DNA of 64,000 nucleotides, taken from Promethearchaeota archaeon (GTDB lineage: Archaea > Asgardarchaeota > Heimdallarchaeia > Hodarchaeales > Hodarchaeaceae). Shown here piece by piece: positions 38,292-58,900 of the stretch. The number at the start of each line of letters is the position of its first letter. Position 1 is the first letter of the stretch. Under the pieces are notes generated by a model. It ran no database searches. It was not told the origin of the DNA and was given only the letters and a program-made list of their open reading frames with translations. The translations under genes were made by a program, and so were the position numbers. The stretch lies in the NCBI GenBank assembly GCA_048938105.1, contig JBHLMN010000009.1:96001-160000 (forward strand), read 5' to 3'.

Positions 38292-39035
38292 TTGAAAATG
38301 AATGATTATCAATTAGCAGTGGAATGGATTTTAGAATCTAAATATACTGTTCTTTTTACTGGAGCAGGAGTTTCTGTTGAAAGTGGAATTCCGCCATTTC
38401 GGGGGGAAAATGGATTATGGAGTAAATATGATCCAACCTTTTTAATGACAAACTATTTTAAGAAACATCCAAAGGAATCTTGGAAATTAATAAACGAGAT
38501 ATTTTATAAATTTTTTAGTCGAGCAAAGCCTAATCAGGCACATTATATTATTACAGAGTTAGAAAAAAAAGGGTTAATTGATATAATAATTACTCAAAAT
38601 ATTGATAATCTTCATCAAAAAGCAGGAAGTAAGAATGTTATTGAATTTCATGGGACTTCAAGGACATTAACATGTATAAATTGTAAAAGACGTTTTGATA
38701 ATGATAAATTTTTAAATAAGTTACCACCACATTGCCCCAAATGTAATGGTCTATTAAAACCCGATTTCGTATTTTTTAATGAACCAATTCCATTGCAAGT
38801 TCACGAACTTTCAAATAAATGTGCTTTAATGTCCGATTTGTTTATATTAGTTGGGACTACTGGAGAAATAATGCCTGCTTCTTTAATTCCATATTTTGCA
38901 AGAGAAAAAGGAGCAAGAATTATTGAAATTAATATTATTCCTACTAAATATACTGATAGAATAGTAGATGTTTTTTTAGAAGGAAAAGCAACAGAAGTAT
39001 TCCTGAAATTAAAAGAATCTTTAGATGTTATTTAA
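38292..39035 (+). CDS. cobB: NAD-dependent protein deacylase (sirtuin)
   Basis: TGAGVSVESGIPPFRG, TQNIDNLH, HG, CxxC...CxxC, KPDFVFF. Confidence 0.93.
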   Translation: MKMNDYQLAVEWILESKYTVLFTGAGVSVESGIPPFRGENGLWSKYDPTFLMTNYFKKHPKESWKLINEIFYKFFSRAKPNQAHYIITELEKKGLIDIIITQNIDNLHQKAGSKNVIEFHGTSRTLTCINCKRRFDNDKFLNKLPPHCPKCNGLLKPDFVFFNEPIPLQVHELSNKCALMSDLFILVGTTGEIMPASLIPYFAREKGARIIEINIIPTKYTDRIVDVFLEGKATEVFLKLKESLDVI

Positions 39036-40039: not shown

Positions 40040-40546
40040 TTAAAGTTGTTTCATCAATTGAAAACCTGAATCTGTTGTCTGAACTACCTTATAACCAAGT
40101 GTTTCATAAAGGTGTTTTGCTATCTTATTTTGTTTGAAAACATGAAGAACAATTTTGTTTAATCCTATTGCTTCTACTTCAGTTTCTAATAATTTCAAAG
40201 CTTGTTTTGCGAATCCTTTTCTTCTATGTTCTTCAAAAATGATAATATCAGCAATAAGCATAACCTGTTTCATAAATGATTCGGGAGACGGCCAAAACCA
40301 GATGTAACCTACTCTTTCTTTACTTCCCTTTTTTATAATAAAATTAAAAAATCGATCGGGAGTTTTAAATCCTTCGGGAAGTGATCTCATATAAGCAGTT
40401 TCTGCATGTTTCATCGCAGCTTCGTGGTTAAGGTTAAAAAGGTCGGAAAGCTCCTTAGCAACCTCTACTAACCGATGAGAATAGATCTCCTGAAAATCTC
40501 TCTTGGTCATTTTCTCAAAAAAGATCATATCAGATATTCTCTCCAA
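40040..40546 (-). CDS. GNAT N-acetyltransferase
   Basis: VGYIW, HRRKGFA, LHVF..N..A..LYE.LGY. Confidence 0.88.
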   Translation of the reverse strand: MERISDMIFFEKMTKRDFQEIYSHRLVEVAKELSDLFNLNHEAAMKHAETAYMRSLPEGFKTPDRFFNFIIKKGSKERVGYIWFWPSPESFMKQVMLIADIIIFEEHRRKGFAKQALKLLETEVEAIGLNKIVLHVFKQNKIAKHLYETLGYKVVQTTDSGFQLMKQL

Positions 40547-40804: not shown

Positions 40805-41251
40805 ATGGCTAAACCTGCTTTAAGATTAAAAGAAACTCCAGACGAATTAATCCTGAATATGGACGAAGAGCTATTTAACTACAAAAAAATGTCAATGCTT
40901 GCTATTGTAGTTGGAGTCTGTTTACTATGCATTTATTTGATAGGACTCATACCTATTGCTATTGGTGTTTATCGCATTAACCAATTAAATAATCGTCCAG
41001 AAGAAGTTGAATATGATATCAGAAGAAGAGCTGAACAAAAATCAGCAAGAAGAGGAAAAAGATTGACGATTATCTATAACCCTGAGGGACAACAGTTTTA
41101 TCGTCGTACACGGCGTCCGCGTCAACCACAGGCTCAATACACCCCTTATACAACACCTCAAGTTGAAACAAAATCCTCTTTCTGTCCTAATTGCGGAGCA
41201 GAGGTAAGTGAAGGTTTCAAGCACTGTATGAGCTGTGGAGCAAGGCTTTAA
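40805..41251 (+). CDS. Membrane protein with C-terminal zinc ribbon
   Basis: Two TM segments; FCPNCG.......HCMSCGARL. Confidence 0.8.
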   Translation: MAKPALRLKETPDELILNMDEELFNYKKMSMLAIVVGVCLLCIYLIGLIPIAIGVYRINQLNNRPEEVEYDIRRRAEQKSARRGKRLTIIYNPEGQQFYRRTRRPRQPQAQYTPYTTPQVETKSSFCPNCGAEVSEGFKHCMSCGARL

Positions 41252-41255
41252 GAAT

Positions 41256-44200
41256 CTAAGAGCAATTAACACAACGTGCAACTACTTCTTCATTTTTTAT
41301 CTTAACTTTAACCCTACCACATTCACTGCAGACCAATGCTTGACATTTTTTACAGGTAGACATATGATCAGGGCAAAAAGATCTGTGACAACCATCACAA
41401 GTCTTAGCAGTACTCTTCCCTTCTATTTGCCCACATTCAGGACAAGTGAATAAGTAGTCACCTTCACATTCCTCACATACAGGTTTCTGCTCAGTATGAC
41501 CCATCTTGTAAGGAACTTTCTCACTAAAGCCCTTTCCACAGACGATACAGGTCCAAGAGTGATCATTACAGAGGATTCCACCTGTTGATTCGTCAACAAC
41601 ACCACAAGTAGTACATAACGGCTTCTTACAAACAACACATTCCTGTGAATGGTCAATACAAACTTTCTTCCCGCAATCAGAACAAAACACAATATGCTCA
41701 CTGCAGAATGTCTTTAAGCATTCTAAACAAATAAAAGTAGGAGGAGATATTTCTGATTCTAGTAAGGATTGATAGTAATTCTCGGTACTAACTTGAGAAC
41801 CACATCCATCACAAGTAATATCAGCATTCCCATTATATAAGTTTAAGTTGATTATAAATTGCCTTTCTGGCCCCTCCTCCACGTTATCCTTCTTTAGTAC
41901 TATAGGTACCAATAATCTGGGAATCCAATATATAGCTTTTTCAGAAATGGAAACATCGGCCTTTCCTGGGCGAAGAAAATCTTGGGGAACCCCTCTCGCC
42001 TTTAACCTCGCGATTGCCTTATGAAATTCCTCATAAGCGGCCTCTTGCTCCTTCATTAAGTCTTGTCGCTGACTTTCTATATCTTTAATTTGATCACGTA
42101 GTTCACGAATTTTTTCTTCATGTCTTGTTATTTTTGTTTCACTAGATTCGATTGAACGTTCGGTCGCTTTACTTGATTTACCTTCAGCATCACGAGCGCG
42201 TTTCTCCGCTTGGAGTGTCTCCAATCTTATCATCGTTTCATCTAATTTTCGGTTCTCATTTTCCATCCTTTCTTCGAGGCGGCTTATTTGAGAGGATAGT
42301 TTTGATAATTCTTTTCTTACTTTTCTACCAGCCAATTTCTCAACTTCATTCTTCTCAAACTCTCGCAATTGATGATGATATATTACCTCTGCTTCCTTGA
42401 AAGGATTCTGTGTAAAATACCATATTATATTATCAGGTAATTTAGTAATAATCTCCTTATCGAGTTTATAAAACTGCACTCCATCCATTGGCTGGATTTG
42501 TAAGTCAGTAGGGGGTAATGCTGACGCATGAATCCCTTCAATCGTTGTAGCATTCCATTCAATCTTCCTACTTAGATCAAATGATCGGGTCATTTCTTCT
42601 GTAATGGCTACAGGAAAATCTAGACCCCCTTCTTTGATTGTCCGCTTAATGTTAATCTGAGTTGTTGAGTAATAGAGAGGCGAATAAAAATTCGTTGTAT
42701 TTCTAAACTGAACAGAAAATCCATCAATTTCAGGCTCCCCACTTATACTTAATCGATTAAAAATAATATTATCTAGCTGTTTTCCCTTTATTGGTATTTT
42801 AGGGTTAAGAAATCGTTCTGTGATTTTCCCCGTTGCTGGCTTTTTCTTACTGAATTCGAATTCTATTTCTGGCGCTTCTTCTACTACTTCAGCTTCAATA
42901 ACTTCTTTTTTTGGTTTTTTTCTCTTCGTTGGTTTTGGTGGTCTAAGCGTCAAAACTTTAATTTCATTATCCGTTAAAGGGCCTTTATGAAGACTAAGGA
43001 GCCATCGAGTTTTTAACCTATTCACTCCATATTTTGGATTATAAGCAATAAAATTACCTGGCTTTAGAGCTCTAATCTGCCCCATTAATTTTGAGAATTC
43101 TTCTGGTGTTCCACCAGCTCCTTCAAAAACTGGTTTCAATGCTCCTTCGACCTTTGCAATATCCTGATTCGTAGCTAACCTTCCTAAAACCCAAGTTGCA
43201 ATATTTGAAAGTCCACGATAGTCAAGGTCTCCGGGGTTTTGCGTGGCTAATACACAACCCAAACCTGCTGCCCGCGCTTGTTTCAAAATTATTAATAATG
43301 CGGTTTTAGAGGGTGGGCTTAGTGCACCAGCTGGCATAAAACCATAAAGTTCGTCAAAATAGAGTATTGCTCGTAAACGACTCGTACCGCCTTTCGACCA
43401 CGCCCATCTTTGTATTTCTCCTAATATTTCAGCAACGAAATTATTTTTTTCATCTGTGTCAGTTATCTTACGTAGATCAAAAACAATTATCGGTGTTTTG
43501 TTTTTCTTTTTAGCTAAAGCAATCATTTTATCAAAGTCTAGATCTACTCCAGGTACCGCCCGTACCATAAGCGCATTGATGTTCCTTGCCAATTCTGATC
43601 TCTTAGTTTTAGAAATAAACTTATCAACTTCTAAAGAACCAACCTTTTCGAATGGTGGGTTTTGAATACCCTCTATAAGTTGATCCAGTTCCACATTCCT
43701 TTGTTTACCTTCCTCCCAATAATTTCTGATAAGGTTACTCAGAAAAATTACTCTGTTATCAGTTGAAGAACTTGTCCCAATCCCACAGCGAGAGAGTAAT
43801 AACTGAATTTTGAGATCAAGGGTACTTAAAAGAGCATCAGGAGATTCAGTCATCAATTCATCATAGTTTGGTGGTTTTTCAAAGTTTGGAGTCAATGAAA
43901 TTTGGACACCTGCAGAATTTTTAGGGGTAATAAGAATGACAGCTACCTTATCAGAAAAATCTTTCTCAATATCTGCATATTCATCCCCAAAAGAGTCTTC
44001 TAGCTTGTCTTGATAAAGTTCTATCCATTCTTCAGCTATTTGTCTAGGATCTCCGCCCCCTCGATCTTCAGCTTCTACTTCCGCATGAACTAGCAACTTA
44101 TCTTTGGTGAATTCACCAAGTCCGATGCCAAGGGCACCAATATCTCCCTTTGGATCAACAGCAATAATGGGAATGTCCGCTCGAATCGCTTCCTCTACGA

Positions 44201-44348
44201 TAGACTTACATACTACAGTTTTCCCAGAACCACTCGCACCCAGAATAGCTGCATGAGTTAAAAAGGTAGTACTCGGTATTTTAAACTGCTCTTCCCCAAT
44301 TCTTCCTAGATAGAACTCTGGATCTGACATATCAACACCATTAACCAC
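41256..44348 (-). CDS. HerA/FtsK-superfamily (DUF87/DUF853-like) ATPase with coiled coil and multi-zinc-finger tail
   Basis: GASGSGKT, VDPKGD, FDELYG, KQARAAGLGCVLATQNPGDLD; ~100-aa heptad region; about 16 CxxC/CxxH knuckles. Confidence 0.88.
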   Translation of the reverse strand: MVNGVDMSDPEFYLGRIGEEQFKIPSTTFLTHAAILGASGSGKTVVCKSIVEEAIRADIPIIAVDPKGDIGALGIGLGEFTKDKLLVHAEVEAEDRGGGDPRQIAEEWIELYQDKLEDSFGDEYADIEKDFSDKVAVILITPKNSAGVQISLTPNFEKPPNYDELMTESPDALLSTLDLKIQLLLSRCGIGTSSSTDNRVIFLSNLIRNYWEEGKQRNVELDQLIEGIQNPPFEKVGSLEVDKFISKTKRSELARNINALMVRAVPGVDLDFDKMIALAKKKNKTPIIVFDLRKITDTDEKNNFVAEILGEIQRWAWSKGGTSRLRAILYFDELYGFMPAGALSPPSKTALLIILKQARAAGLGCVLATQNPGDLDYRGLSNIATWVLGRLATNQDIAKVEGALKPVFEGAGGTPEEFSKLMGQIRALKPGNFIAYNPKYGVNRLKTRWLLSLHKGPLTDNEIKVLTLRPPKPTKRKKPKKEVIEAEVVEEAPEIEFEFSKKKPATGKITERFLNPKIPIKGKQLDNIIFNRLSISGEPEIDGFSVQFRNTTNFYSPLYYSTTQINIKRTIKEGGLDFPVAITEEMTRSFDLSRKIEWNATTIEGIHASALPPTDLQIQPMDGVQFYKLDKEIITKLPDNIIWYFTQNPFKEAEVIYHHQLREFEKNEVEKLAGRKVRKELSKLSSQISRLEERMENENRKLDETMIRLETLQAEKRARDAEGKSSKATERSIESSETKITRHEEKIRELRDQIKDIESQRQDLMKEQEAAYEEFHKAIARLKARGVPQDFLRPGKADVSISEKAIYWIPRLLVPIVLKKDNVEEGPERQFIINLNLYNGNADITCDGCGSQVSTENYYQSLLESEISPPTFICLECLKTFCSEHIVFCSDCGKKVCIDHSQECVVCKKPLCTTCGVVDESTGGILCNDHSWTCIVCGKGFSEKVPYKMGHTEQKPVCEECEGDYLFTCPECGQIEGKSTAKTCDGCHRSFCPDHMSTCKKCQALVCSECGRVKVKIKNEEVVARCVNCS

Positions 44349-44560
44349 ATTAGAAAGATTAAATATTAATTAATATGATTTAAGAGTCTGTAATTCGAAA
44401 ATACATAAAGTAAGCTATTAAATAAACTTTATCAAACTGAGCTTAGTTATCATATGATATATTAAAAAATTCCTCTTAATTAATGCTAAAGTACTTGGAA
44501 GATACTTAAGTCCCTCAGGAATGCTTTATAGTATTAGGTTTAAAACCCACGGACTCTTCT

Positions 44561-45175
44561 GTGAATATAAATCGCGTCAGGATAGGTCGAACATTGGTCA
44601 ACATTGGTATTTTAGGAACAATGAATTGCGGAAAAACATCAGTCTTCGTGTCTTTTATGAATTCTTTAGCTAGCTCGGATGAAAAAATCATTGCTGGCGC
44701 CCCAGGTGGCCCAGAAATGTATACAACGCAGACAGTCGATTTTATTAGATTTACGTCAAAAGGATTCATCCATGTTCTCTATGGCACTGGTGGGCATCAA
44801 ACTCCTATCACTGATTATTATCGTGTTTATGTCTTAAGAAATGCTAATCGATTTCTTTGTATGTTTGATCTAAGTGAGGATCTTGAAGAACAATTTGAAT
44901 TTTATCGCGGATTTGATATTCCAACCAAATCAATTGTTGTTTATCTGAATAAATATGATCTAGCTCCTGAAAATTTGAAAAATTATCAAGAAAAAGTAAG
45001 TTCTTTCTTTATTAATGAGAAGAAAAAACTCATCAAAGATATTTTCCCAACAGTTGCATTAAGAACTGCTGATGAAGAACATGAGGAATATAAACAGAAT
45101 TGTTTGAAAGGGATATTAAGTCTATGTGATTTTGATCGGGATGCTTCTGCTTTTGATGTCTGGGAGGGGCAATAA
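44561..45175 (+). CDS. Divergent small GTPase (MglA/CvnD-like)
   Basis: G1 GTMNCGKTS, G2 TTQTVDF, G3 variant YGTGGH, G4 NKYD, G5 TVA. Confidence 0.8.
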   Translation: MNINRVRIGRTLVNIGILGTMNCGKTSVFVSFMNSLASSDEKIIAGAPGGPEMYTTQTVDFIRFTSKGFIHVLYGTGGHQTPITDYYRVYVLRNANRFLCMFDLSEDLEEQFEFYRGFDIPTKSIVVYLNKYDLAPENLKNYQEKVSSFFINEKKKLIKDIFPTVALRTADEEHEEYKQNCLKGILSLCDFDRDASAFDVWEGQ

Positions 45176-45205
45176 GAGTATAAGAAAGATATAGGATCAG
45201 ATAGT

Positions 45206-46117
45206 ATGACTTCCGAAGAAGATCCTTTTATTAAGCTTGTCGAAACATTAACAGTCTTGGAAAACTATAACCGAGCTCTTTGTCTAATAGCAGTATATTT
45301 AGGCCAAAGGGCTGATCAGAATACTGTTCAAGGAATTACAGATATTTTTTCAGCACTTTTGGGAAAAGAAACCGCAGCTACCCCCACAAAAGTTCGTGGT
45401 TTAATCACTTCATTAGTGAATGTTGGCATCCTTGAACGTGAAAGAGTAAAAATGATCAGTTCGACAAAGGTTTCTTTCCATTCAATTAGCTCTTTGGGTC
45501 TAATTACTTTATTATACATTTTAATTATTTATCTTATAAAAGATCCAATGCATGGAGTAGAATGGGATAACTTGATGTTTGTAGGATATATTTCTGGTGA
45601 TCGAGAGGATAATCTTGTCCGATTCCTAAACAATTCAATCATTGAGAGTAATAGAATAACAGAAAGATTTTGGACATCATTAAAAAGTGGAAAAGAACCA
45701 AAGAAGATTAGGATGAGTAAACCACTCGATTTAGATGTAATGAAAACCTTCAGTGGGAAAGGTGGTATTGACACTTTCAAGATTTTAGAAGAATTAGTGT
45801 GGGATCATCTGAATCTAAATACTGGCATTTCCCAAGATGAATTAGCAAGTCATTTTGAAGGATCAATAACAAGTAATCTCAAGAAATTAACTCCTCTTGC
45901 TTTAGAAGAACAATTAAACAAATCCAAGTATTATCGATTGTCTTCTTTAGGAGTATTTATTTTACCAGTTTTAGCATTAATGATAAAGGAATTATCAGTT
46001 GATCAGTCTATTTTCCAATCAATCCTGACAAAGGATGTAAACACAGAGGAAAATCCATGGGTTGTATTAATACGCCAAGCACGCTTCTTTTTCAAGAATT
46101 TGTATAGAATTCCTTAG
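45206..46117 (+). CDS. Hypothetical protein with probable tandem winged-helix domains
   Basis: LVNVGIL...FHSISSLG and ISQDELA...YYRLSSLG repeats. Confidence 0.55.
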   Translation: MTSEEDPFIKLVETLTVLENYNRALCLIAVYLGQRADQNTVQGITDIFSALLGKETAATPTKVRGLITSLVNVGILERERVKMISSTKVSFHSISSLGLITLLYILIIYLIKDPMHGVEWDNLMFVGYISGDREDNLVRFLNNSIIESNRITERFWTSLKSGKEPKKIRMSKPLDLDVMKTFSGKGGIDTFKILEELVWDHLNLNTGISQDELASHFEGSITSNLKKLTPLALEEQLNKSKYYRLSSLGVFILPVLALMIKELSVDQSIFQSILTKDVNTEENPWVVLIRQARFFFKNLYRIP

Positions 46118-46288
46118 TCCTAATTCTATAAATCCTTTTTTATTTCAAAGGTTTAATTTAATCAAAAAGACAAAAAATACTTGAGTTCATAACTTCAATA
46201 AATTTAATTAATTCGCAGGTAATAGATTACTGCTGTCGTAAACATCATCCCATTTGTGTTAACGAAGTACCCTAGGCTGTGATACAAC

Positions 46289-47683
46289 GTGATTGTCGTC
46301 TTAGATGAACAAGATTCACCATTTCATCTTCCTCTAGTTGATTTTCACACTCACATCGGTAGAGTTAAGATTGAGACTACAAAAGGGGCCTCCCAAAGAA
46401 TAAATCGTCCCCAAGATATCATCAATCTTTATGAAAAATTGCAGTATGAAATACATAGACGTATTTCTCTGAACCAATCAGATTATTATGTTACTCTACC
46501 AAAAGCAGAAGAACTTTCAAATCCTTTACTCCCTGCTGTACAGAAGTTATTAGAATTGAATAGTACTAAAAGTCGAGGATGGATCGTTGATCATATCGTT
46601 TGCTTCCCGTTTAATGATATTTTTCATACAAAGACGTCTCCAAAATTTATTAAAAGTAATCAATATGTACGTCATCAAACACAATCCTTTGATTTTTCAT
46701 TTCGGTTTATTCCATTTTGTAGGGTAGATGTGACTGATGAAGGAGCTGCTGAAGAGGTAAAGAACTCTATTGGTTTAGGAATGAGAGGATTGAAACTCCA
46801 CCCTATGTCACAAGGTTGGATCGAGAGCATTGTGTCATCCGCCTGCAAAGAGGTTTTACAAACAGCGGGAGAGCTTTCAATACCAATCATTTTTGATGTT
46901 CCTAATAAGGGAGTAGCTGTTGACATTACTACAATAGCAGAAGAAGCACGACAAGAGGTTGATTTTCCAATCAATGTCGTCTTAGGTCATTCTGCTTTTG
47001 ACTATAATTCGAAAGAAATCTTTGAATGTTTAACAAAAGATGAAATGTTTGCTGAAACATCAGGAATGAGGGGAAAAGATGTTGAGATTTATTTCAACAA
47101 TGTTGTAAATGTAAAGGGATGGGAAAATAAATTACTGTTTGGAACAGATTCAAATTACTTTGGTGTCTTACAGGCAGCTGATTTCATCACTTTTCTTTTA
47201 TCACAGAAATTTAAAGAGCTAGTTGAAAATACTAGCTCTAATATTGAACCATTAGATGCAGCTGGGAGAATACTTGGAGGTAATGCTCTTAAAATTATTC
47301 CCCCATCTTGGTTCAATAATTCAATTCCACTGAAAAAACATCGTTCGAGCTCTAAAGGATATTCAACAGATTTACTAATTTTACGATCAAATCTAAAAAA
47401 GATTCTAACAAAACAGAACAACACGGGAACAATTGATCTTGCTAAACCGCAGAGAAAAGAGATTTCGATTCAAGTTCTAACTATTGGGCAATTAGACAAA
47501 AAATTCTCTTATATTCTTGAAACTAAGGACAATTATCAAAATATCACACTCAGTCCAATTTCTAATCTTGATAGAATTAATGATTTACCCATAAAATCGC
47601 TAAGCCCTGTTGAATTGATTTCTAAATCGCGGAAAAGGAAACCACGCTTAAAAGATCAAACATTTCTTGAATTATTGGGGTGA
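46289..47683 (+). CDS. Amidohydrolase_2-family metallohydrolase with C-terminal extension
   Basis: DFHTH, GLKLHP, LGH, LLFGTDS, ILGGNA. Confidence 0.85.
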   Translation: MIVVLDEQDSPFHLPLVDFHTHIGRVKIETTKGASQRINRPQDIINLYEKLQYEIHRRISLNQSDYYVTLPKAEELSNPLLPAVQKLLELNSTKSRGWIVDHIVCFPFNDIFHTKTSPKFIKSNQYVRHQTQSFDFSFRFIPFCRVDVTDEGAAEEVKNSIGLGMRGLKLHPMSQGWIESIVSSACKEVLQTAGELSIPIIFDVPNKGVAVDITTIAEEARQEVDFPINVVLGHSAFDYNSKEIFECLTKDEMFAETSGMRGKDVEIYFNNVVNVKGWENKLLFGTDSNYFGVLQAADFITFLLSQKFKELVENTSSNIEPLDAAGRILGGNALKIIPPSWFNNSIPLKKHRSSSKGYSTDLLILRSNLKKILTKQNNTGTIDLAKPQRKEISIQVLTIGQLDKKFSYILETKDNYQNITLSPISNLDRINDLPIKSLSPVELISKSRKRKPRLKDQTFLELLG

Positions 47684-50646
47684 ATCGCTTGACTAATAAA
47701 GAGTACACACTTAAAACGGAATTATATTTCACCCACGGAATTGAAATAGAGAACCATTTAGTTTCACGAAAAACAGGGGAAGTTATTGTAGGAGATGAGC
47801 TTCTCAACGCGTGGGAGAAAATGTTTTCTGGAGCAGCAGAATTCTTACAGAAATTGAGAAAAGATAAGCACGTTCCTAAAGAAATCTTAAAGAAAATCGA
47901 AAAAGTAGAAGTTAAAGAAGAGGTTAAGAGAGAAAGACGGTTAAAATTCGTCTTTGTCAACTATAAGCTAGGAAAAAAGACTATCCGAGTCAATGTATTT
48001 GGGCCAGATCCCAATATTGGTCAAATCACTTGGTTACTCGAACTGGTGACTCCTCCTTGTGAGTATTTAGAGGAATTGGATTTCTGGATCGATACATTAT
48101 TTGCAGCAGGCCTTCAAGGCCTACCCTCTGATGTAGCTTTACTTCCGATTGGATTAAATCCAACAGAAAAAAGGGTAAGGAGTGGATTGACATGTGGAGA
48201 ACATCATCATATTGGGATGCCAAAACAAATACGTATTCCTATATATAATATGCTTAGAAATTATGTACCTCATTTAATCGCTCTTAGCACAACATCCCCA
48301 TTTTTAGATAAAAAACCAAGTGGTAAGGTTTTGATTCGAAAAACTGATGGAAAAAAACAGATTATAGGAAGATGTGTCCATTCGTACCGATTACTGAAAA
48401 ATAGTGGTCAAATGGGACCAAATATACCTAGTTATCTCCCCGTATTAGATAACAAGTCTACTAGAATGGATTTCGCTAAATCAGTTAGAAAGGCTCCTCC
48501 AGATGACCGAATGGTTGATTTGTATCCTTTTACTGATTACTCTACGATAGAAATTCGTTTTTTTGACGCTCAACCTTGGCCCGAGATCCGCTTGGCCATC
48601 GTACTCTTGATTCAAGCTCTTGCACAGAAAACAAAGAATTTAATTGAGAATAATGAAGAAGTCCCTAAAGTAGCATCCCGATGCCTTTACGAAAACCGAA
48701 GAAAATCTGTGCAATTTGGTCTACTTGCCCAATTTACCACTGACGATAATTTGGCTGATAACTTTTCCAAATTTTACAATTATGATATAACTACTGGTAA
48801 AAAAGCTTCAAAATTGATGCATTCCATAAAATCTTTGTTAGTTTATGTTCAGCATGAGCTCGAGGGATTTGGATCGGAGTTGGTGAATTATATTCTAATA
48901 CCTATCCTTGGTTCTAATGATTATGATCCCCCTCTCACTGTAGCAGAATATTTACTTTCTTTATACAAAATTGCTGATGATATTTCCTTCTTACCAGATT
49001 TATATTATTCTAAAGAAAATAGCTATCCTTTAGTTGTTGCCAGTGATTATACTTCTCTTCAACAGGTGGAAATAACGGATAAAATTGAAGAGACAGAAGC
49101 ATCCCTTCAACAATCATTACGTAAGGATTTAGCTAAACGGAAAATTTCAATCCCAAAAGTAGAGAAAAAACCAGTAAAACCTAAGGGAAAACCTCCTAAG
49201 AAACCACCTAAGAAGAAAGTTCCTCGGAAAAGACCAAAGAAAAAGGAGATTGAGAAACCTGTTATTACACCCACAATAAAGGTCGAAAAGCCACCAACTT
49301 TAGCAGCAATAAAAACTAGAAAACATGTTCCTAAGCCAATTCCACCTCCTACTGAAGAACCAATTGAAACAACAGAAGGGGAAATTAAAATATCTGCTTT
49401 TGAAGATAGTGAGGACCTCGAAGTATTCTCACCAACGATAGAAGTTGAAGCTAAATATCAGAAAATTGAATCTAGAATAGCAAATGTCATGCGAACTCGA
49501 CGTAAAGAAATAGAAGTAAAAAGGCGAGAATTTTTCTTAGATCATCTTAAAAAAGAACGTGTGGCTTTTAAACCCTCTCCAAAAAAGGTTGCCCCTATCT
49601 TTCCAGCCTTAGTATCAGGACCAGAAATATTTGGATACATTGAAATCAGTTTTCGTGATGTTAAAAGAGCCATGTATAAATTTCGAAATAATCCCATCAC
49701 ATTAATATTCAAAGCCAAAGAAAAAGGAAAACCAGTGAAGTCAAAGATAAACACCTCAATAGATATAGCCAGTCTTGAAGAAAGAGGAATGACTAGAATT
49801 CCATGCTCAATAAACCTGGGTGAATTATATGGAGATATAACGGTGAATATAGAGGCAGTTACTGCAACAAACGAAAGCCTATTACCAAAAAAGTTCTCAT
49901 TTAATCTAATCCGCAAGGATGAAATAGCAATAAATCCAAAAGAATTCTATGTTACTGGGAATTATGGCCTTGTAGAGTGTATCTTTCAAGCGGTCAATGA
50001 ATCAAAAGATTCAGAAAAAGGAGAACATGAAGTATTCCTCGTGACCCAGGCTTTAACAGATCCAGTCTTAATATCTTATACAAAATTTAATTTGAAACCT
50101 AAAGAAAATCTAGAACTAGCTCGGAGTATCGATTTATTAATAAATTATCAACACACACCCTTTTACATAGTATCTCAAATCACAATCGGACGATTTAAGA
50201 AGAATAGGTCATTTAAGACAATTGGACCAATAAAACCACTGAAAGAAATATGTGTAGATTGGAATTTCACGGTTGACCCAACAAAAAGAACTAATCTCTG
50301 GGAAGGAGTAGAACCAAAAAAGCAGTATGAAGTGAACTTTGTATTCCATTTTATTAAATCAATGCCGTATGCAACTATAACAATTCATGTGAATACTCTC
50401 CCTGGGGGGCAAACAAAACGATTAGTAAATTTTCGAATCAAAAGAGACATTGATGCAGGGGATGAATTCATCATACCGAATATTAAATTTAAAACACCAA
50501 AAGATTGTGGTTATCTCTATTTTGATGTTGAAATACGCAATGAAATGGGATTAATTCCACTGGATCTCATTTCTGGTCCAATTGGAGTCCAAAGTAAAGG
50601 TGAACAGGCAGCTACATATGAAGAGAGACTTGATTTGACGTTATAG
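47680..50646 (+). CDS. Glutamate-cysteine ligase 2 (carboxylate-amine ligase) domain + Pro/Lys linker + C-terminal beta-rich domains
   Basis: HGIEIE, LELVTPP, TCGEHHHIG, LIALSTTSPF, SYR, TIEIRFFD; GTGA overlap with the amidohydrolase. Confidence 0.8.
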   Translation: MNRLTNKEYTLKTELYFTHGIEIENHLVSRKTGEVIVGDELLNAWEKMFSGAAEFLQKLRKDKHVPKEILKKIEKVEVKEEVKRERRLKFVFVNYKLGKKTIRVNVFGPDPNIGQITWLLELVTPPCEYLEELDFWIDTLFAAGLQGLPSDVALLPIGLNPTEKRVRSGLTCGEHHHIGMPKQIRIPIYNMLRNYVPHLIALSTTSPFLDKKPSGKVLIRKTDGKKQIIGRCVHSYRLLKNSGQMGPNIPSYLPVLDNKSTRMDFAKSVRKAPPDDRMVDLYPFTDYSTIEIRFFDAQPWPEIRLAIVLLIQALAQKTKNLIENNEEVPKVASRCLYENRRKSVQFGLLAQFTTDDNLADNFSKFYNYDITTGKKASKLMHSIKSLLVYVQHELEGFGSELVNYILIPILGSNDYDPPLTVAEYLLSLYKIADDISFLPDLYYSKENSYPLVVASDYTSLQQVEITDKIEETEASLQQSLRKDLAKRKISIPKVEKKPVKPKGKPPKKPPKKKVPRKRPKKKEIEKPVITPTIKVEKPPTLAAIKTRKHVPKPIPPPTEEPIETTEGEIKISAFEDSEDLEVFSPTIEVEAKYQKIESRIANVMRTRRKEIEVKRREFFLDHLKKERVAFKPSPKKVAPIFPALVSGPEIFGYIEISFRDVKRAMYKFRNNPITLIFKAKEKGKPVKSKINTSIDIASLEERGMTRIPCSINLGELYGDITVNIEAVTATNESLLPKKFSFNLIRKDEIAINPKEFYVTGNYGLVECIFQAVNESKDSEKGEHEVFLVTQALTDPVLISYTKFNLKPKENLELARSIDLLINYQHTPFYIVSQITIGRFKKNRSFKTIGPIKPLKEICVDWNFTVDPTKRTNLWEGVEPKKQYEVNFVFHFIKSMPYATITIHVNTLPGGQTKRLVNFRIKRDIDAGDEFIIPNIKFKTPKDCGYLYFDVEIRNEMGLIPLDLISGPIGVQSKGEQAATYEERLDLTL
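49165..49350 (+). repeat. Pro/Lys-rich low-complexity coding linker
   Basis: KKPVKPKGKPPKKPPKKKVPRKRPKKK...VPKPIPPP. Confidence 0.7.
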
Positions 50647-50748
50647 ATGAAGAGTCAGTTTTTTTTGATATAAAATTAGTTTAAAAAAGATTAAGAATAC
50701 TGAAGTAGAATAATGTTAGTTAATGATTAAATTTGAAGAGGCTTAATT

Positions 50749-52032
50749 ATGGTTAAACTTAATGTTGTAAATGTTGGGAAGATCGAAGGTCGTGCATATT
50801 TACATCCGTCTGACATTAGTAGCGTTGGTGTTGAAGAATTTGATTTTGTTAAGATTTCAACAGAATGGGAGGATTGGGGGGCAGTTCAAATCCTATCATC
50901 TGATGAAGTTAGTAAGGGAACAATTGCTGTTGATGATAGTGTGTTAAATTCAGCTAATATTTCGGACGGAGACGTATGTGAAGTAGAACCTGCAAAAATC
51001 GCTGCAGGTATTAAATCAATTAAACTTGGGATTGAACCATTAGCAGGCCAAGAAGTCGAGGAAGCAATCTTATGGATTGCTACTGAATTTGAAGAATTAT
51101 CAAATATTCTTCGAAATCGGCCTGTATTTTCAGGATTACAAATTGCTTGGGAAGACTGTCCTATAGGTAGCATAACAGTCAGATTTATGGGCTCGGAACC
51201 AGCCATCCAAGAAAATGAGATTGGTATTGTCGATCCTACTGGTCGTGAAGTTGAAATAAACATCATTCCATTTACTGAAATGAGCTTTAATGCCGTTTTA
51301 GTACTTGATGTTTCAGGTAGTATGCAAAAAAAGGATATGAAGGTAAAGAATATTAGTGGGGCTTTGGAAGGACTTAAAAAAGGTTTAGAGGAGACCGGCG
51401 AACTAAATACATTTATTGAAAGGTTTGTAGATGGAAAAAAGGTGTCTCGCGTTGATGCCGCGGCCATGGCAATTATGTTATTCATGAGCCTGAAGATAGC
51501 AAAAGGGTGGGGTGAACAAGTCCAGCTTATAACCTTCTCTGGGGATGTGGAAAAATTCACTCTGGGTGATTCACAAGTGATTTCTTGTGTTGGTGAAACC
51601 AAAAAAGCTGGAATTGAAAGCATTATCGGTCACGTCGTCCAAAAAACCGAAGAAAGTTCAGGGCTTACATTTCTCAGTGGAGCTCTTGATGAAGCATATA
51701 GCAGTATTGAGAATTTTGATGAAAATCCCACCATTAACAAGCGAAATCCAACGATGATCATTGTACTTACCGACGGTAACCCAAATAAAGGCAATGGCCT
51801 AGGAGTAAATCCAATTCCCGTGGTTAGAAAGAAGGTTGAGGAAAATCCTGAAGCTGTTCTGTATGCAATCGGACTAGGAGAAGCTGATAGGCTGATGCTT
51901 CGTCGTGTTGGAGAAATTGGCCGAGGGGGATCATTGATGGCAGATGATCTCGAGACACTCATTGATTTTTACGATTCATTAGCTCAGAATTTCCAAATGG
52001 TAGTTAAAATGAAGAAACAGGAAGTAGAGTAA
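50749..52032 (+). CDS. CDC48/VAT N-domain-like (double-psi barrel) fused to VWA domain
   Basis: GRAYLHPSDISSVGVEEFDFVKI...GTIAVDDSVLNSANISDGDVCEVEPA...NRPV; MIDAS DVSGS...T...TDG. Confidence 0.78.
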   Translation: MVKLNVVNVGKIEGRAYLHPSDISSVGVEEFDFVKISTEWEDWGAVQILSSDEVSKGTIAVDDSVLNSANISDGDVCEVEPAKIAAGIKSIKLGIEPLAGQEVEEAILWIATEFEELSNILRNRPVFSGLQIAWEDCPIGSITVRFMGSEPAIQENEIGIVDPTGREVEINIIPFTEMSFNAVLVLDVSGSMQKKDMKVKNISGALEGLKKGLEETGELNTFIERFVDGKKVSRVDAAAMAIMLFMSLKIAKGWGEQVQLITFSGDVEKFTLGDSQVISCVGETKKAGIESIIGHVVQKTEESSGLTFLSGALDEAYSSIENFDENPTINKRNPTMIIVLTDGNPNKGNGLGVNPIPVVRKKVEENPEAVLYAIGLGEADRLMLRRVGEIGRGGSLMADDLETLIDFYDSLAQNFQMVVKMKKQEVE

Positions 52033-52210
52033 AACAAACCTTATTATCTTCCTTTTTTTCAGTTATTTATCAATTCCTCTCTGATTATTAACAATGATTC
52101 CCCAGAATCATATACTCAAGTTCTTAAGATAATTATCTAAGTTATATTTTTATAGAATAGCAATAATAGCTTCCCTCCCATTCTGAAAAGGATTTTGGTC
52201 TTTACTATAG

Positions 52211-53740
52211 GTGGGATTAATGCCTCAATTTATAATACGCGAAATCACGATAGAACCAAAAGATATCGTTATAATCTCTCGAATTAATAACGAACACCTT
52301 GTTACACAGGCAAAATTTATTCTTTCTTTTGGTCAGAGAAAAATTACACCTGAGCAGGTACTTAAAGTAGAGAATTGGGTTGGAGAAGATGAAATAGGCC
52401 TATCACACTCTCTGATTAAGAGTCTAGGAGCTAGCGAAGGGGATGAAGTAGTTCTACAAACGCAAAGCCATTCTGCTTCAACAAGCTATTCTTTAATAAA
52501 ACAACGGATTTTACAACCAGGTAAAACATTCAATAAAGCTGAAATTGATCAAATTATCGGCGATATTACAAGCGGAACCCTCACTCCTTTAGAATCGTCA
52601 GTTTTTATAACATCACAGATGTTTCAAGAATGGAATATTTCTGAAATTGAATATTTGACCAAAGCTATTGCATGCTCAGGTCAAACAATAGATTGGAAAG
52701 ATCGTATTATTTTTGACAAGCATAGCTTAGGTGGTGTCCCAGGAAATAAAGTTTCTCTGTTGATTGTACCAATTATTGCTGCGGCTGGATTGACAATTCC
52801 CAAAACAAGTAGTCGTGCTATTACTAGTCCTTCTGGAACAGCGGACACAATGGAAGCTTTGGGTTGTGAGATTGAATTTTCTATTGATGAAATAGTTGAA
52901 ATCACTAGCCGTACTAATGGACTCATTGCTTGGACAGGAGGACTCAATATTGCCCCAGCTGATGAGAGGATTATAAGAGACGTCCAGTTTCCTTTAGGTA
53001 TTGATCCTGAGCCAATGATGATGGCATCAGTCCTTGCCAAAAAAGTTGCTATGGGTATACACTTTTTAGTGTTGGATATTCCAACTGGAATTGGGACTAA
53101 GGTTGAGAATATGAAATCGGGGAAAAGAATAGCGCATAGATTTGCGGAATTAGGCCAAAATCTTGGTATTCGAGTAGAAAGTGGAATAACTTATGGAAGT
53201 AGTCCTGTAGGTCATGCGATTGGTCCTGCTCTTGAAGCTCGTGAGGCATTAAATGCACTGATTAATCCTCAACTAGCCTCAGATTCGTTAATCGGAAAAA
53301 GTACCTCACTTGCAGGAATTCTTCTAGAAATGTCTGGTAAAGCGATTCGAGGTAGAGGTCAAGATTTGGCACTTGAAATAATAAATTCAGGTAAAGCGTA
53401 TAGAAAGTTCCAAGAAATCTTGGAGGCACAAAATGCAGATCCTAAGATCCAACCAGAAGATATTGAGGTGGGGGAATGTATGTACGAATATATCGCTCCT
53501 CAAAGCGGTTGGATTGTGGAGATTAACAACAACGTTATTTCAAGAGCAACACATGCAGCTGGAGCCCCAATGGATAAGGGTGCTGGGATTCAATTTCTCA
53601 AAAAGAAAGATTCTGTTAAAAGAGGAGAAGTTATATTTCAGTTATATGCTCCTAATGAACAAAAATTACGAGCAGCGGAATCGGAATTAGTAAAAAATGT
53701 TCCTTTTATAATCGAAGGCATGTTACTTGCTCGTGAATAA
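52211..53740 (+). CDS. deoA: AMP phosphorylase (archaeal thymidine-phosphorylase family)
   Basis: DKHSLGGVPGNK, KTSSRAITSPSGTADTME, ASVLAKK, IGPALEAREAL, GAPMDKGAG. Confidence 0.92.
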   Translation: MGLMPQFIIREITIEPKDIVIISRINNEHLVTQAKFILSFGQRKITPEQVLKVENWVGEDEIGLSHSLIKSLGASEGDEVVLQTQSHSASTSYSLIKQRILQPGKTFNKAEIDQIIGDITSGTLTPLESSVFITSQMFQEWNISEIEYLTKAIACSGQTIDWKDRIIFDKHSLGGVPGNKVSLLIVPIIAAAGLTIPKTSSRAITSPSGTADTMEALGCEIEFSIDEIVEITSRTNGLIAWTGGLNIAPADERIIRDVQFPLGIDPEPMMMASVLAKKVAMGIHFLVLDIPTGIGTKVENMKSGKRIAHRFAELGQNLGIRVESGITYGSSPVGHAIGPALEAREALNALINPQLASDSLIGKSTSLAGILLEMSGKAIRGRGQDLALEIINSGKAYRKFQEILEAQNADPKIQPEDIEVGECMYEYIAPQSGWIVEINNNVISRATHAAGAPMDKGAGIQFLKKKDSVKRGEVIFQLYAPNEQKLRAAESELVKNVPFIIEGMLLARE

Positions 53741-54333: not shown

Positions 54334-55410
54334 ATGCAGGCAATTATGAAGGTAAAAGAGGAAAAAGGGTTTGAAATTCGAGAAGTTCCCGAACCTGAGA
54401 TAACACATACGAATGAAGTTAAAATTAAAGTTGATGTTGCTTCCATTTGTGGTACAGATCATCATATGTGGGATTACGACCAATGGGCTCAAAAACGCTT
54501 ACCTCCAGCTATCCCATTTATCGCTGGTCACGAATTAGGAGGAGAAGTTATCGAAATCGGTACTGATGTCAAGAATCTTCAGATTGGGGACAAAGTTTCA
54601 CTTGAGTGTCATGAGGCTTGTGGTACCTGTTATCAATGTCGAAGTGATCGTATGCACATCTGTCGGTACACTAAGATTTTTGGTGTTGACAAAGATGGGA
54701 TATTCACAGAGTTTGCTGTTGTCCCCGAACTCAATTTAGTAAAAAATGATGCTAATCTTGATCCCGCTCTCGCTTCTCTTCAAGATCCCCTAGGAAATGC
54801 TGTCCATACAGTTTTTCCCAAGAATTTAACTGAAGACGAAGGGATTGCTGGGAAAAATATCTTTATAACTGGTTGTGGACCAATAGGTTTAATGGCCATT
54901 CCAGTTGTACAATCATTTGGAGCAGCCCAAGTCTTTGCTAGTGGTGGAGGTCGAAATTTACTAAGGCTCGAAATGGCGAAAAAATTAGGAGCAGATATGG
55001 TTCTTAATGCTCGTGAAGAAAAGAATATTCCTAAAATCATCAAGGATGCAACTGATGGAAATGGTGTTGACATCCTCTTAGAGATGTCTGGTAATGTTAA
55101 CGCTTTACGTCAAGGTTTGGAATCATTAACATTAGGCGGACGTGTCTCCTTATTAGGCTTCTTCCCTGGCCCAATCGAATTTGATATAAATTCACTAATG
55201 ATTAGTAAAGGTGCTAGTATATATGGGATCGCTGGCCGCCGGATGTTTGAGACGTGGCAAGTTATGGGGGGTATTTTAAAATCTAAAGAATTTCAGAATC
55301 AATTAAAGAAGTTAATAACACATCGTGTTAATATGGCTGATTGGGAAAAAGGAATGATCGAGATCCATGAGAAGAGAGCTGTGAAAGTTGTTATGGATCC
55401 GTTCAAATGA
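54334..55410 (+). CDS. tdh: L-threonine 3-dehydrogenase
   Basis: ICGTD.H, GHE, CGTCYQC...HIC, DPLGNAVHT, GCGPIG, GRRMFETW. Confidence 0.9.
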   Translation: MQAIMKVKEEKGFEIREVPEPEITHTNEVKIKVDVASICGTDHHMWDYDQWAQKRLPPAIPFIAGHELGGEVIEIGTDVKNLQIGDKVSLECHEACGTCYQCRSDRMHICRYTKIFGVDKDGIFTEFAVVPELNLVKNDANLDPALASLQDPLGNAVHTVFPKNLTEDEGIAGKNIFITGCGPIGLMAIPVVQSFGAAQVFASGGGRNLLRLEMAKKLGADMVLNAREEKNIPKIIKDATDGNGVDILLEMSGNVNALRQGLESLTLGGRVSLLGFFPGPIEFDINSLMISKGASIYGIAGRRMFETWQVMGGILKSKEFQNQLKKLITHRVNMADWEKGMIEIHEKRAVKVVMDPFK

Positions 55411-55922: not shown

Positions 55923-58900
55923 ATGTCAGAAATTCAAAAAGAGCTATCAAAAGCTAAAACAAATGAAGATGAAGGGAATTTTGAGAAAGCTGCTCAAAAC
56001 TACTTCAAGGCAGCTAAGCTGACAAATGATCTCAAACTTTACAATAAAGCCTTTTTTACTGCGAGAAAATCTGGTAGTACCAATCTAATGTTCCAAACAG
56101 GAAAAAACTACTACGATATATTAGATCAAGAGGATCAAGAGGAGAAGATTAAAGAATTAATTCCAACGTTCTTGGAAGTTTCGGGTCGTGAACGAGATCG
56201 TTTGTCTGAATCCCCAGAGGAAATGATTGAGGTTCTAGATTGGACTACTAAATTGTATCAACTAGTAGGAAAAACAGATGCTGCTTATGATATCTCTTTA
56301 CAAACTGGAGACTCTTATTTTTCTTATGGGCAGCACCTCTTAACTACAAAAGCGAGATTAGGCAAGGAAGAAAAATGGCAAAGAGGATTAGAGCTATTTG
56401 AAAAAGCTGTGGAAGCTTTTCAGAAGATAAGGTTAGATAGGCAATCGCTTGAGAAAATTCTTGAAGTTAAGCTTGATAAAATAAGCAAATTAATCGACAT
56501 TAATCGTCATGTGGAGGGGATTGAAGAGACTTCAACTTTAATGGAATTTTATAGATCTCAAGCAGCAGAAATTGTTCCGTATTCCCATGAAGTTTTGTCC
56601 CTAAAGATTGCTGAAACTTTAGCGGATAAAAGTCTTGTTGCTGCCCGAGATAAACAATTTACTATTGCAGATGTGTTAATGAAGTCAGCAAAGGCAGGTT
56701 ATGAGAATGCAGGGGAGTTTATTAAAGTAGCTCCTTATTTGTGGCAGTTAGCAGTAATTTATGATGAATTTGATCAAAAAGAACTCTTTTTCTCTCTTGT
56801 AGACACAACTTATGACACAGTTTTGAAGTATGAGGATGAATCAATCCAACAAACGATTTTAAATTATCTAGACAATCAAGCAAAAAGCATTTGCTCAAAA
56901 ATCATCAATTCTCGTCTTCTAATGGTTAAGAAAGGCCCAATAGAATTCCAAAACAATGATGGTGTGCAGTATTTATTAAAAAGTATAGATTTGGCTAAAA
57001 AAATTAATAATGTTGACATTCCTGACAAAGCACTTGAATTTCTCTTTCAATATGCGCAAACCATGTATGACAAGAAATTAACAAAGCGTTCTCTTCCTTA
57101 CTTAGAATTTTGCGCTCAAAACTGGTGGACCTTACCAGAAAGATCAAATAAGACACATGAAATCATTGCCTACCTAGAATCAAAATTTGGGAATTTAATC
57201 ACCGAGGGTAAATTTAATAAAGCATCAAGGCACCTTAGATGCATAATTTCGATTAAAATCTTTATGGAGGATTTTGAAAGTGCTGGAACTTCCGCCTATT
57301 CATTTGCTCAATCAGCAGGCCAGCAAGGAAAACAAGAGATAGAATTGGAATTTCTAGAACAGGCTTATGATGCTTTTAATTCTGTAAAAGCAACAAAGAA
57401 TTTACAGGATATGCTTAACTATGTTAACCAACAGATGGAACCACTTTTTAATTTGGATTCCAAATCACAAGAACCCAGAGAGAGTTTCATTCATTTAGGA
57501 GAATTAATTGCTGCAGCAATATCAGAAGAAACTCAAGGAGATTTTTTTCAGGGCACTGCCATAAAAGCTCTCAATTCTGGGTTAATTGACTTAGGAATCA
57601 GCTTTACTGATAAAACATTTGAAGTTCTGAAGACTTATGATCAACATGCTGCTGCTGATTTCTACTTCAATGTGGGCTCTATTCTGTTAGAAACTGATAT
57701 GGAAAAAGCATTTAATTTTATTTCAAAATCAACGGAATTTGCAACAAAATATGAACCCCTAAAGGATCTTGTAGATCGTAATCTTGATTATATCCAAAAT
57801 AATGCACTTACAAGTACTGATCTATCTGTTAAAATATTTTTAGTAAAGAAATTGGAACTTCTCTATGAAATAGTTGAGAGAGGTGATGTATTCAATGAAT
57901 TCCTTTTCATATTAGCTCAAAACCTCTCTGAAAATACAAAACAACCAAATTACTTCACTGAAATGAAGAATTATCTCTCTAAGTCTTTTTACGGTTTCCA
58001 TACTCAAGACCCTAATCATCCAAAACTCTCTGAGATCATTACATGGACAAATAATCACATTCTTGAAGCATATACGGATACAGAACATACTCAAATGTAT
58101 GAGCTTGCTATCCAAAATTTAGCATTTCATAAAGAATTGAACCAAATCCAAGAATATATTAATTTCTTTTGGGACCTTTTTAATAAGTTTGTATCAACTG
58201 AGGATTTCCCTCACGCAGTTGCTTATTTCAAACAGTTATATGAAACCCTTGATCAGTTAGAGCAACACACTGAAATTAAAAAGGAAATCACAGAGCAAGT
58301 AGCATCAAGTATAGATCGAGGTATCAAACCACGGATAGCTGATGAAAAATTTGATGAAGCTTGGCCTATCATTGAAGGATTATTCTCAATACTTGAGGAA
58401 GTAAATTCACATTCAGAAGCGATAAACCTTTATCAAACCAATGCTCAACTTTTTGCACCTCATCGCTTAGATCTAGCTTTAACTATGTGGAGTCAAGCTA
58501 TTAACAAAGCTAAGACAATTAACGATACTGATGACATAACCACTATTACAAAGGTTATTATTGATGATATTATACCAATTTATCTTGAAAGAGGAATTCC
58601 ACGGGCAGTAAACCAATTGTATTCCCAGGCTGCTTCTGCTTTCAATGCCTTAGGAAATAGCGCTGCTATGCTAGAAGCCATGCTAAATGTAACTAGGTAT
58701 AACTTATCTTTAAGTGATTTTGAAGCTGTTCATCAACTTGGGAAAAAAGGATTTGATTTAGCCACTAAATTTAAACTTGATGAACCACTGTTTGAATTCG
58801 CCAATATGTTTTTTGCAGTGGGCAGCGGCTTGTTAGTAGAAGATCCTGAGACTGGAGTCGAGTTGATAAAAACTGCTTCAGATTACTTAAGAGATTATGG

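Follow-up and report, generated by a model that had tools for sequence, protein, structure and literature searches.

Gene content of the block

We analysed a block of six genes at positions 41256 to 52032 of a 64,000-nucleotide stretch of DNA from Promethearchaeota archaeon (assembly GCA_048938105.1, contig JBHLMN010000009.1, positions 96,001 to 160,000), hereafter called the window. The original prediction, made from the sequence alone, had read the six genes as a single tagging or remodelling system with a writer, an eraser, an adaptor, a GTPase switch, and a HerA-type motor. An open reading frame (ORF) check of the window placed all six ORFs where they had been described, with the ATPase gene on the minus strand and the other five on the plus strand. 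The notion of one system survived for half of the block. The genes encoding a carboxylate-amine ligase, a metal-dependent hydrolase, and a protein with a Cdc48N-like and a VWA domain form a real, undescribed three-gene unit of Asgard archaea, since their phyletic profiles are nearly identical, the genes are linked in several different orders, their trees are congruent, a fusion of hydrolase and VWA protein is conserved, and a complex of these two proteins is predicted. The ATPase, the GTPase, and a 303-amino-acid (aa) protein are not supported as parts of this unit. The literature that we searched contained no paper joining Asgard archaea with this ligase, hydrolase, or VWA set.

The three core genes occupy positions 46289 to 52032 of the plus strand. 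Core gene 1 (46289-47683, 464 aa) encodes a metal-dependent TIM-barrel enzyme of the Amidohydro_2 branch, and core gene 2 (47680-50646, 988 aa) encodes the ligase, which carries a noncatalytic tail. The product of core gene 3 (50749-52032, 427 aa) has a putative Cdc48N-like double-psi barrel (aa ~1-175) followed by a VWA domain (aa ~180-415) and no ATPase. The stop codon of the hydrolase gene overlaps the GTG start of the ligase gene in the sequence GTGA (47680-47683, plus strand), as had been noted; an alternative TTG start lies 9 nt downstream (47689) and is used by the database gene call (985 aa). This junction is similarly tight in all the species of the genus examined. The T-runs reported near 46135 and 50659 were also found. 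One lies 3' of the 303-aa gene (46136-46145) and is likely an archaeal terminator between the GTPase/303-aa and hydrolase/ligase units, the other is a T8 run 3' of the ligase gene (50659-50666) and likely terminates transcription ahead of the VWA gene, and a further run follows the VWA gene (52053-52059). Going by the nucleotide sequence, these T-runs likely separate the transcripts of the block.

The ligase

By its sequence, the ligase belongs to the superfamily of carboxylate-amine ligases and is not an orthologue of YbdK or GshA. This superfamily, for which a GhExE signature has been defined, joins an ATP-activated carboxylate to an amine (PMC2588565). The Pfam GCS2 model was matched above its cutoff (24.8 versus 21 bits) over a 50-residue stretch only, and the best score against the equivalog models of YbdK and GshA (63.8 bits) did not reach the cutoff of 371. 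The signature is present as G20-I-E22-x-E24 and is invariant, together with 40 further columns, in 32 sequences. No Pup-ligase family was found among the Pfam and NCBIfam matches of the ligase, and single-sequence and profile searches of PDB chains with the ligase or the hydrolase returned nothing useful.

Structure prediction divides the protein into a YbdK-fold domain, a disordered linker, a long helix, and a series of beta-sandwiches. The catalytic domain of YbdK/GCS2 fold (47680-49137, aa 1-486) was modelled with a predicted local distance difference test score (pLDDT) mostly above 85 across residues 10 to 450, and it matched YbdK (1r8g) in Foldseek with an E value of 3.1e-13 and a TM score of 0.76 on the target. 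The linker (49138-49473, aa 487-598) is rich in lysine and proline and has a pLDDT below 50. The tail (49579-50604, aa 634-975) is predicted to form three tandem beta-sandwich domains of macroglobulin/Ig-like type, with Foldseek matches to complement C5/C3, alpha-2-macroglobulin, and CD109. It differs between lineages, and the only relatives of its sequence that turned up are in proteins of Hodarchaeales type. All forms of the ligase have either 500 to 900 noncatalytic residues or a separate scaffold gene of ~600 aa next to it.

This second arrangement is seen in three families, f14, f27, and f29 (families, genomes, loci, and contigs are cited with our own labels f, G, L, and C). There, a ~600-aa protein of no known family is always encoded directly upstream of a short ligase of ~570 aa (L045:11357-13198; L044, L046-L049). 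It showed no sequence similarity to the tails of the long ligases by blastp or hidden Markov model (HMM) comparison, and it may replace these tails.

The assembly to which the window belongs has, on a 4.5-kb contig (G000 C60:43-2609), another pair of ligase and hydrolase, which is of the short f14 type and 33 to 34% identical to the window pair. No VWA gene matching it was found in the genome, and the assembly has an estimated contamination of 7%. The pair could be a second set or a contaminant.

The hydrolase

The hydrolase of the window falls below the Pfam gathering threshold for Amidohydro_2 (PF04909; 18.5 versus 26.4 bits), and its f4 orthologue lies above it (32.7 versus 26.4 bits). Seven residues, H20, H22, K169, H171, D203, H234, and D287, are invariant across 25 relatives, and the HxH, His, His, and Asp metal ligands correspond to H20/H22, H171, H234, and D287. 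The structural model (pLDDT, 87; predicted TM score, 0.90) gave its best Foldseek matches to LigI (4i6k; E value, 1.9e-9), ACMSD (2hbv; E value, 6e-8), and IDCase (4hk5). It adds to the barrel a hairpin/helix insert of ~70 aa after the HxH motif and an alpha/beta domain at residues 358 to 425. The modelled fold and the metal ligands confirm the protein as a mononuclear-metal TIM-barrel enzyme of the Amidohydro_2 branch; the role of amide eraser, which had been given to it, is an assumption.

The Cdc48N-VWA protein

The third core protein matched two Pfam models of the VWA family above their cutoffs (VWA_2, 35.9 versus 27 bits; VWA, 31.2 versus 23.8 bits). Its metal ion-dependent adhesion site (MIDAS) includes the motif DVSGS (51307-51321, plus strand; D187, S189, and S191) and is completed by T307 and D342, and these five residues are invariant in 22 relatives. 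The CDC48_N model remained below its cutoff in the window copy (27.4 versus 35.1 bits) and was matched in 18 of the 22 relatives, with a best E value of 1.9e-9. A search of PDB sequences with the family profile retrieved VWA chains, as well as VAT, p97, and designed double-psi beta-barrel (DPBB) chains at E values of 0.003 to 1. AMP phosphorylase also contains a match to the N-domain, in its own N-terminal domain (TIGR03327 residues 3 to 107, E value of 1.9e-6; PDB 4ga5, E value of 0.18). No AAA family was matched in the protein, in which the N-domain is followed by the VWA domain, without the two AAA+ ATPase rings of Cdc48/p97/VAT. DEPDC5/Iml1 was absent from the family-profile matches among PDB chains, and there was no Pfam IML1 match.

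Variants of this protein occur in other families. Two of them (f12 and f23) encode a third Cdc48N-VWA paralogue (L059:6905-12360, L060, L061) beside genes for an MBL-fold hydrolase, a Zn-dependent dehydrogenase related to one encoded downstream in the window, a HAD hydrolase, and a radical-SAM protein, and neither a ligase nor a hydrolase of the trio was found at that locus. The VWA proteins of f27 and f29 are longer (685 to 764 aa; L044:14837-17131, L049:12712-14769), with an extra N-terminal barrel and a long proline-rich linker before the Cdc48N-VWA core.

Distribution, gene order, and phylogeny of the three genes

Phyletic profiles were drawn up over the same 250 Asgard genomes for every gene of the block. 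The ligase was present in 133 of them, against 135 for the VWA protein and 132 for the hydrolase; 124 genomes had the complete trio, and 140 had one or more of its genes. Most of the 16 genomes with a partial set are incomplete assemblies, and in G015 the apparent absence of the ligase is an assembly gap, with 100 N directly after the hydrolase gene. Each of the three genes was found in the same 10 families and was missing from the same 18. The co-occurrence across Asgard genomes that had been proposed as a check of the six-gene system was thus borne out for the trio, and the three neighbours showed other patterns.

The three genes also recur together in different arrangements, as seen in 20 loci from nine further families. 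They follow one another as hydrolase, ligase, and VWA on one strand in f1, while in f12, f23, and f10 the hydrolase and VWA genes share a strand and the ligase gene is convergent. In f29, the VWA, scaffold, ligase, and hydrolase genes all lie on one strand. The hydrolase gene adjoins the VWA gene in f11, with the ligase gene ~10 kb away; the neighbours of this ligase (DUF92, ABC transporter, and Band 7 genes) were considered as partners and rejected, their synteny being limited to the family and not common to others. In f4, a second family of the same class, only the hydrolase and ligase genes are adjacent, and the VWA gene lies 6 kb away among genes for PFK, a Ras-type GTPase, and MetRS.

Three trees were computed from 25 matched sets, for the catalytic domain of the ligase, for the hydrolase, and for the VWA protein, and they share one deep split and matching subclades (SH-aLRT of 99 to 100). 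Type I comprises f1, f4, and a single set from each of f12 and f23. The other sets of these two families belong to type II, together with f10, f28 grouped with f11, and f29 grouped with f27 and f14. Accordingly, f12 and f23 have two paralogous sets in one genome, one of each type and each with all three genes. The common split and subclades argue that the trio was duplicated or transferred, and then inherited, as a unit.

In a pattern scan that covered 185,579 species with a single genome per species, 196 relatives of the VWA protein came to light, and the best 80 of these 196 bear Asgard names (Hod-, Heimdall-, Jord-, Frey-, Sigyn-, Thor-, Hermod-, Odin-, and Promethearchaeota), except for a few bins with other labels. 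Look-ups in the ESM Atlas returned only the Asgard clusters of the query proteins themselves.

A conserved fusion and a predicted complex

An ORF of 876 aa near the f11 ligase joins the two partners of the ligase in one protein. Its residues 1 to 404 align with the hydrolase family (hhalign probability, 98.8; E value, 7.5e-17) and its residues 468 to 806 with the Cdc48N-VWA family (hhalign probability, 96.8; E value, 3e-10). The fusion is kept as an open frame of 870 to 920 aa in 36 of 41 genomes of f11, a family labelled Thorarchaeota going by one contig record, at 28 to 37% identity, and it usually faces an active hydrolase-VWA pair, with the ligase gene ~10 kb away. Both the HxH and the MIDAS residues are replaced in the fusion, suggesting that it is inactive. 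It is probably an old pseudoenzyme copy of the hydrolase-VWA pair. One copy (G177:C3:785286-787911) is interrupted by TGA and TAG stops and may be a pseudogene.

Paired complex modelling had also been proposed for the block. The pair modelled here, the hydrolase and VWA protein of the window, reached ipSAE scores of 0.84, 0.83, and 0.84 in three runs, and the best of three controls scored 0.00. In the calibration of the modelling tool, 58 of 80 solved complexes and 2 of 110 mismatched pairs came up to this mark, figures that apply only roughly here since we supplied our own alignments. The runs had at least 48% of contacts in common, and the pLDDT of the partner was at least 79. We know of no similar hydrolase-VWA complex, so that recall from a solved structure is unlikely. 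The VWA protein is therefore predicted to bind the hydrolase. On the hydrolase side, the modelled interface comprises helix 41-61 of the insert and the loops that follow the strands with H20/H22, D101-P107, S258, and D287 (beta-strands 1, 2, 7, and 8); on the side of the VWA protein, it comprises N-domain loops 67-74 and 97-100 and the invariant GWGE loop 252-255. From this model, we infer that the VWA protein would sit on or beside the catalytic face of the hydrolase, using its N-domain and the face opposite the MIDAS, which would be left free.

Neighbouring genes

The upstream part of the block starts with the gene of a HerA/FtsK-type P-loop ATPase (41256-44348, minus strand, 1,030 aa), which matches Pfam DUF87/HerA (31.3 versus 23.2 bits) and HerA_C (23 versus 22 bits). 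It has a Walker A motif (GASGSGKT) at residue 37, an SMC-like coiled coil at ~660 to 790, and a cysteine-rich zinc-finger tail, with 12 CxxC motifs and 28 cysteines in the last 210 residues. The block was also considered as a defence system and rejected as such: PADLOC matched the ATPase alone (mad8 and HerA models), and the other five proteins had no match. The next gene (44561-45175, plus strand) encodes a small P-loop GTPase of 204 aa, whose family matches are all below cutoff and whose motifs include G1 GTMNCGKT, G4 NKYD, and a noncanonical G3, YGTGGH. The gene of the 303-aa protein (45206-46117, plus strand) always lies directly 3' of the GTPase gene. This protein matched no Pfam or NCBIfam family, and the winged helix-turn-helix label given to it could not be confirmed.

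These three genes form a set restricted to the genus and stand beside the trio by synteny only. The 303-aa protein turned up in 13 of the 250 genomes, all of them of this genus. The GTPase is present in 12 of the 15 genomes of the genus and, elsewhere, has 3 weak matches among the 250, in families that do not have the trio. The ATPase has full-length relatives both within the genus and in f19, a family that also lacks the trio. Neither the ATPase nor the GTPase nor the 303-aa gene was found near the trio in the 20 loci from nine further families, or in f4. Thus, the parts that had been assigned to the GTPase as a switch, to its 303-aa neighbour, and to the ATPase as a motor could not be upheld. 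Within the genus, the whole block is syntenic in ~12 species, with ligase identity down to 55%. In G002, however, the two groups of genes are on different contigs: one carries the ATPase, GTPase, and 303-aa genes followed by 1.6 kb of other sequence, and the other carries the trio with 7.4 kb of other genes upstream. In G006 (L058, G006:C337 6466-12397), the AMP phosphorylase gene faces a HerA gene (33% identical) and UbiA, and the five plus-strand genes are replaced by an AT-rich spacer of 348 bp; none of the five was found anywhere in this genome, which is 91% complete.

The block is flanked by SIR2, UbiA, GNAT, AMP phosphorylase, toprim, and alcohol dehydrogenase (ADH) genes. A SIR2-family deacylase gene (38292-39035) and a GNAT acetyltransferase gene (40040-40546) lie just upstream. 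A 148-aa protein with a C-terminal zinc ribbon (40805-41251) is encoded convergently with the HerA-type gene, 4 nt from its 3' end, and had no match in the compared loci of related species. Downstream, the VWA gene is followed by an AMP phosphorylase gene (52211-53740), an adjacency seen in most species of the genus, with the AMP phosphorylase gene missing in L013, L014, and L030. A Zn-dehydrogenase gene (54334-55410) lies 2.3 kb downstream of the VWA gene, and further on is the gene of a 1,161-aa protein (55923-59408) with only a weak TPR match. This protein is encoded in the same place, after the ADH gene and before an MFS gene, across the genus, at 42 to 82% identity.

Possible function of the trio

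Taken together, we lean modestly towards reading the block as two unrelated units: the Hodarchaeales copy of the Asgard trio (46289-52032), devoted to the enzymatic writing and editing of an amide bond, and a group of genus-level neighbours (41256-46117). The ligase would use ATP for the activation of a carboxylate and link this group to an amine, thereby writing an amide bond of the gamma-glutamyl or isopeptide type. The complex of hydrolase and VWA protein would prepare, edit, or remove the bond made by the ligase. Within this complex, the VWA protein could be a fixed partner of the hydrolase, covering the side of the barrel that bears the catalytic loops, and its VWA and Cdc48N domains may select the target or keep it in place by way of an acidic ligand. 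This chemistry, the direction of the reaction, and the substrate are what we infer for the trio. As to the target, the chances that it is a protein or a protein-bound group are about even; a free metabolite is a less probable but serious candidate, and anything else has a small chance. The ligase tail, the obligate partner for protein docking, the inactive copy that has been conserved, and the occurrence of paralogous sets favour a macromolecule, and PafA is an example of protein tagging by a member of this ligase superfamily. The trio might even be a reversible protein-amidation system (gamma-glutamyl or isopeptide) independent of ubiquitin and Pup, whose Cdc48N-VWA subunit would be an archaeal forerunner of the N-terminal half of DEPDC5/Iml1, a version that we consider improbable.

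Several observations weigh against the reading of the trio as a system that writes and edits amide bonds, and of the block as two separate units. The characterised relatives of the enzymes act on small molecules: YbdK and other GCS2 proteins in gamma-Glu-Cys synthesis, and LigI, ACMSD, and IDCase in lactone hydrolysis or decarboxylation. The nearest solved structures of the hydrolase are accordingly those of a lactonase and of decarboxylases, with no amidases among them. The block has no room for a small Pup-like ORF, its largest intergenic gap being 212 bp, and neither a proteasome gene nor an AAA+ gene is linked to the trio. The co-occurrence rests on ~10 family-level cases, as related genomes are not independent, and in f14 the linkage is loose, with the VWA gene 6 to 100 kb from the ligase gene. 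Moreover, the GTPase, the 303-aa gene, and the trio are missing alike from G006, G007, and G010, and the GTPase/303-aa pair could still have an accessory role specific to the genus.

Some of these observations would be explained if the trio belonged to a small-molecule pathway of the FluG/NodGS type, with a metabolite that the hydrolase would open or decarboxylate and that the ligase would either gamma-glutamylate or couple to an amine, the part of the VWA protein being limited to the regulation or scaffolding of the enzymes. The closest solved relatives of the two enzymes, which act on small molecules, and the missing Pup-like ORF fit such a pathway, and the pairing of an amidohydrolase with a glutamine synthetase (GS)-fold ligase is a known one, FluG/NodGS having an amidohydrolase domain joined to a GSI-like ligase that makes a gamma-glutamylated intermediate (PMC6478659). 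However, a ligase with 500 to 900 noncatalytic residues or a separate 600-aa scaffold would be unusual for plain metabolism, as would an obligate protein-binding partner with VWA and Cdc48N domains, here predicted to dock on the hydrolase. The long conservation of a catalytically dead fusion and the presence of paralogous complete sets in one genome also speak against it, and we consider this pathway unlikely, if still the strongest competitor. That same dead fusion, conserved for a long time, would suit a noncatalytic or regulatory complex, in which the folds of the enzymes would act chiefly in sensing or scaffolding, for example, in the sensing of nutrients or metals, and not in forming bonds. 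Nevertheless, the catalytic residues of ligase and hydrolase and the MIDAS are invariant across all the active copies, which argues for selection on catalysis and makes such a complex very improbable.

The system of all six genes, with GTPase switch and HerA motor, draws on the synteny of the block in the genus down to 55% ligase identity, and on the joint absence of the GTPase, the 303-aa gene, and the trio from three genomes, with exactly five genes gone in G006. This last absence fits a single deletion of adjacent genes. Yet the three neighbours do not follow the trio: outside the genus, the GTPase/303-aa pair is represented only by the weak GTPase matches in families without the trio, the HerA protein has full-length relatives in f19 without the trio and is kept as a copy in G006, which lacks the trio, and in the 20 loci of the nine other families the trio has none of the three close to it. 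The two sets on different contigs of G002 and the T-runs between the units point in the same direction. We therefore hold the six-gene system to be very doubtful; it is not rated at zero, since the joint absence would allow an accessory role of the GTPase pair. With two separate units as the preferred reading, a link of HerA or the GTPase to the trio needs no further effort.

Significance and comparison with known systems

No closer relatives of eukaryotes than the Asgard archaea are known, and gene sets that occur in most Asgard classes and are missing elsewhere are candidates for pre-eukaryotic cell biology. The module described here unites a ligase of the superfamily from which the Pup ligase arose, a metalloenzyme, and a docking protein with MIDAS and Cdc48N domains, and it has its own pseudoenzyme copy and paralogous sets. 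If its bond is written and removed on proteins, it would represent a third prokaryotic protein-tagging chemistry; if the target is a metabolite, the module would define an unknown Asgard compound. Were the Cdc48N-VWA protein a forerunner of DEPDC5, the eukaryotic GATOR1 nutrient-signalling complex would have a prokaryotic, enzyme-bound origin.

The trio resembles several known systems in part. The VWA protein recalls the VWA adaptors of MoxR/AAA+ systems (CbbO, NorD, and CoxE), in which a MIDAS-bearing VWA domain docks on an enzyme, and its putative N-domain recalls that of Cdc48/VAT, the double-psi barrel with which Cdc48 holds its partners. It differs from both by the absence of a linked AAA+ partner and by its predicted position on the hydrolase. 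With the Pup system, whose PafA and Dop belong to the same ligase superfamily, the trio may share the writing of an isopeptide bond on proteins by such a ligase, paired with an enzyme that prepares and removes the tag (PMC2588565). The second enzyme of the trio, however, is a TIM-barrel metalloenzyme and not a PafA paralogue, and no Pup-like ORF and no proteasome/Mpa gene lie nearby.

The ligase itself is closest in fold to YbdK/GCS2 (PF04107; E. coli YbdK 1r8g, Salmonella 1tt4), with the same GhExE signature, and by analogy it is expected to carry out an ATP-dependent carboxylate-amine ligation. In contrast to YbdK, the Asgard ligase is 2.5 to 3 times larger, with a lysine/proline-rich tether and three beta-sandwiches, and is always found with the hydrolase and the Cdc48N-VWA protein. 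FluG/NodGS and the matching bacterial gene pairs likewise couple a TIM barrel of the Amidohydro_2 type to an amide ligase of GS fold (PMC6478659). In the trio, the ligase is of the GCS2/YbdK branch and not of the GSI branch, the two enzymes are separate proteins with tightly packed genes, and a VWA partner and a ligase tail have been added.

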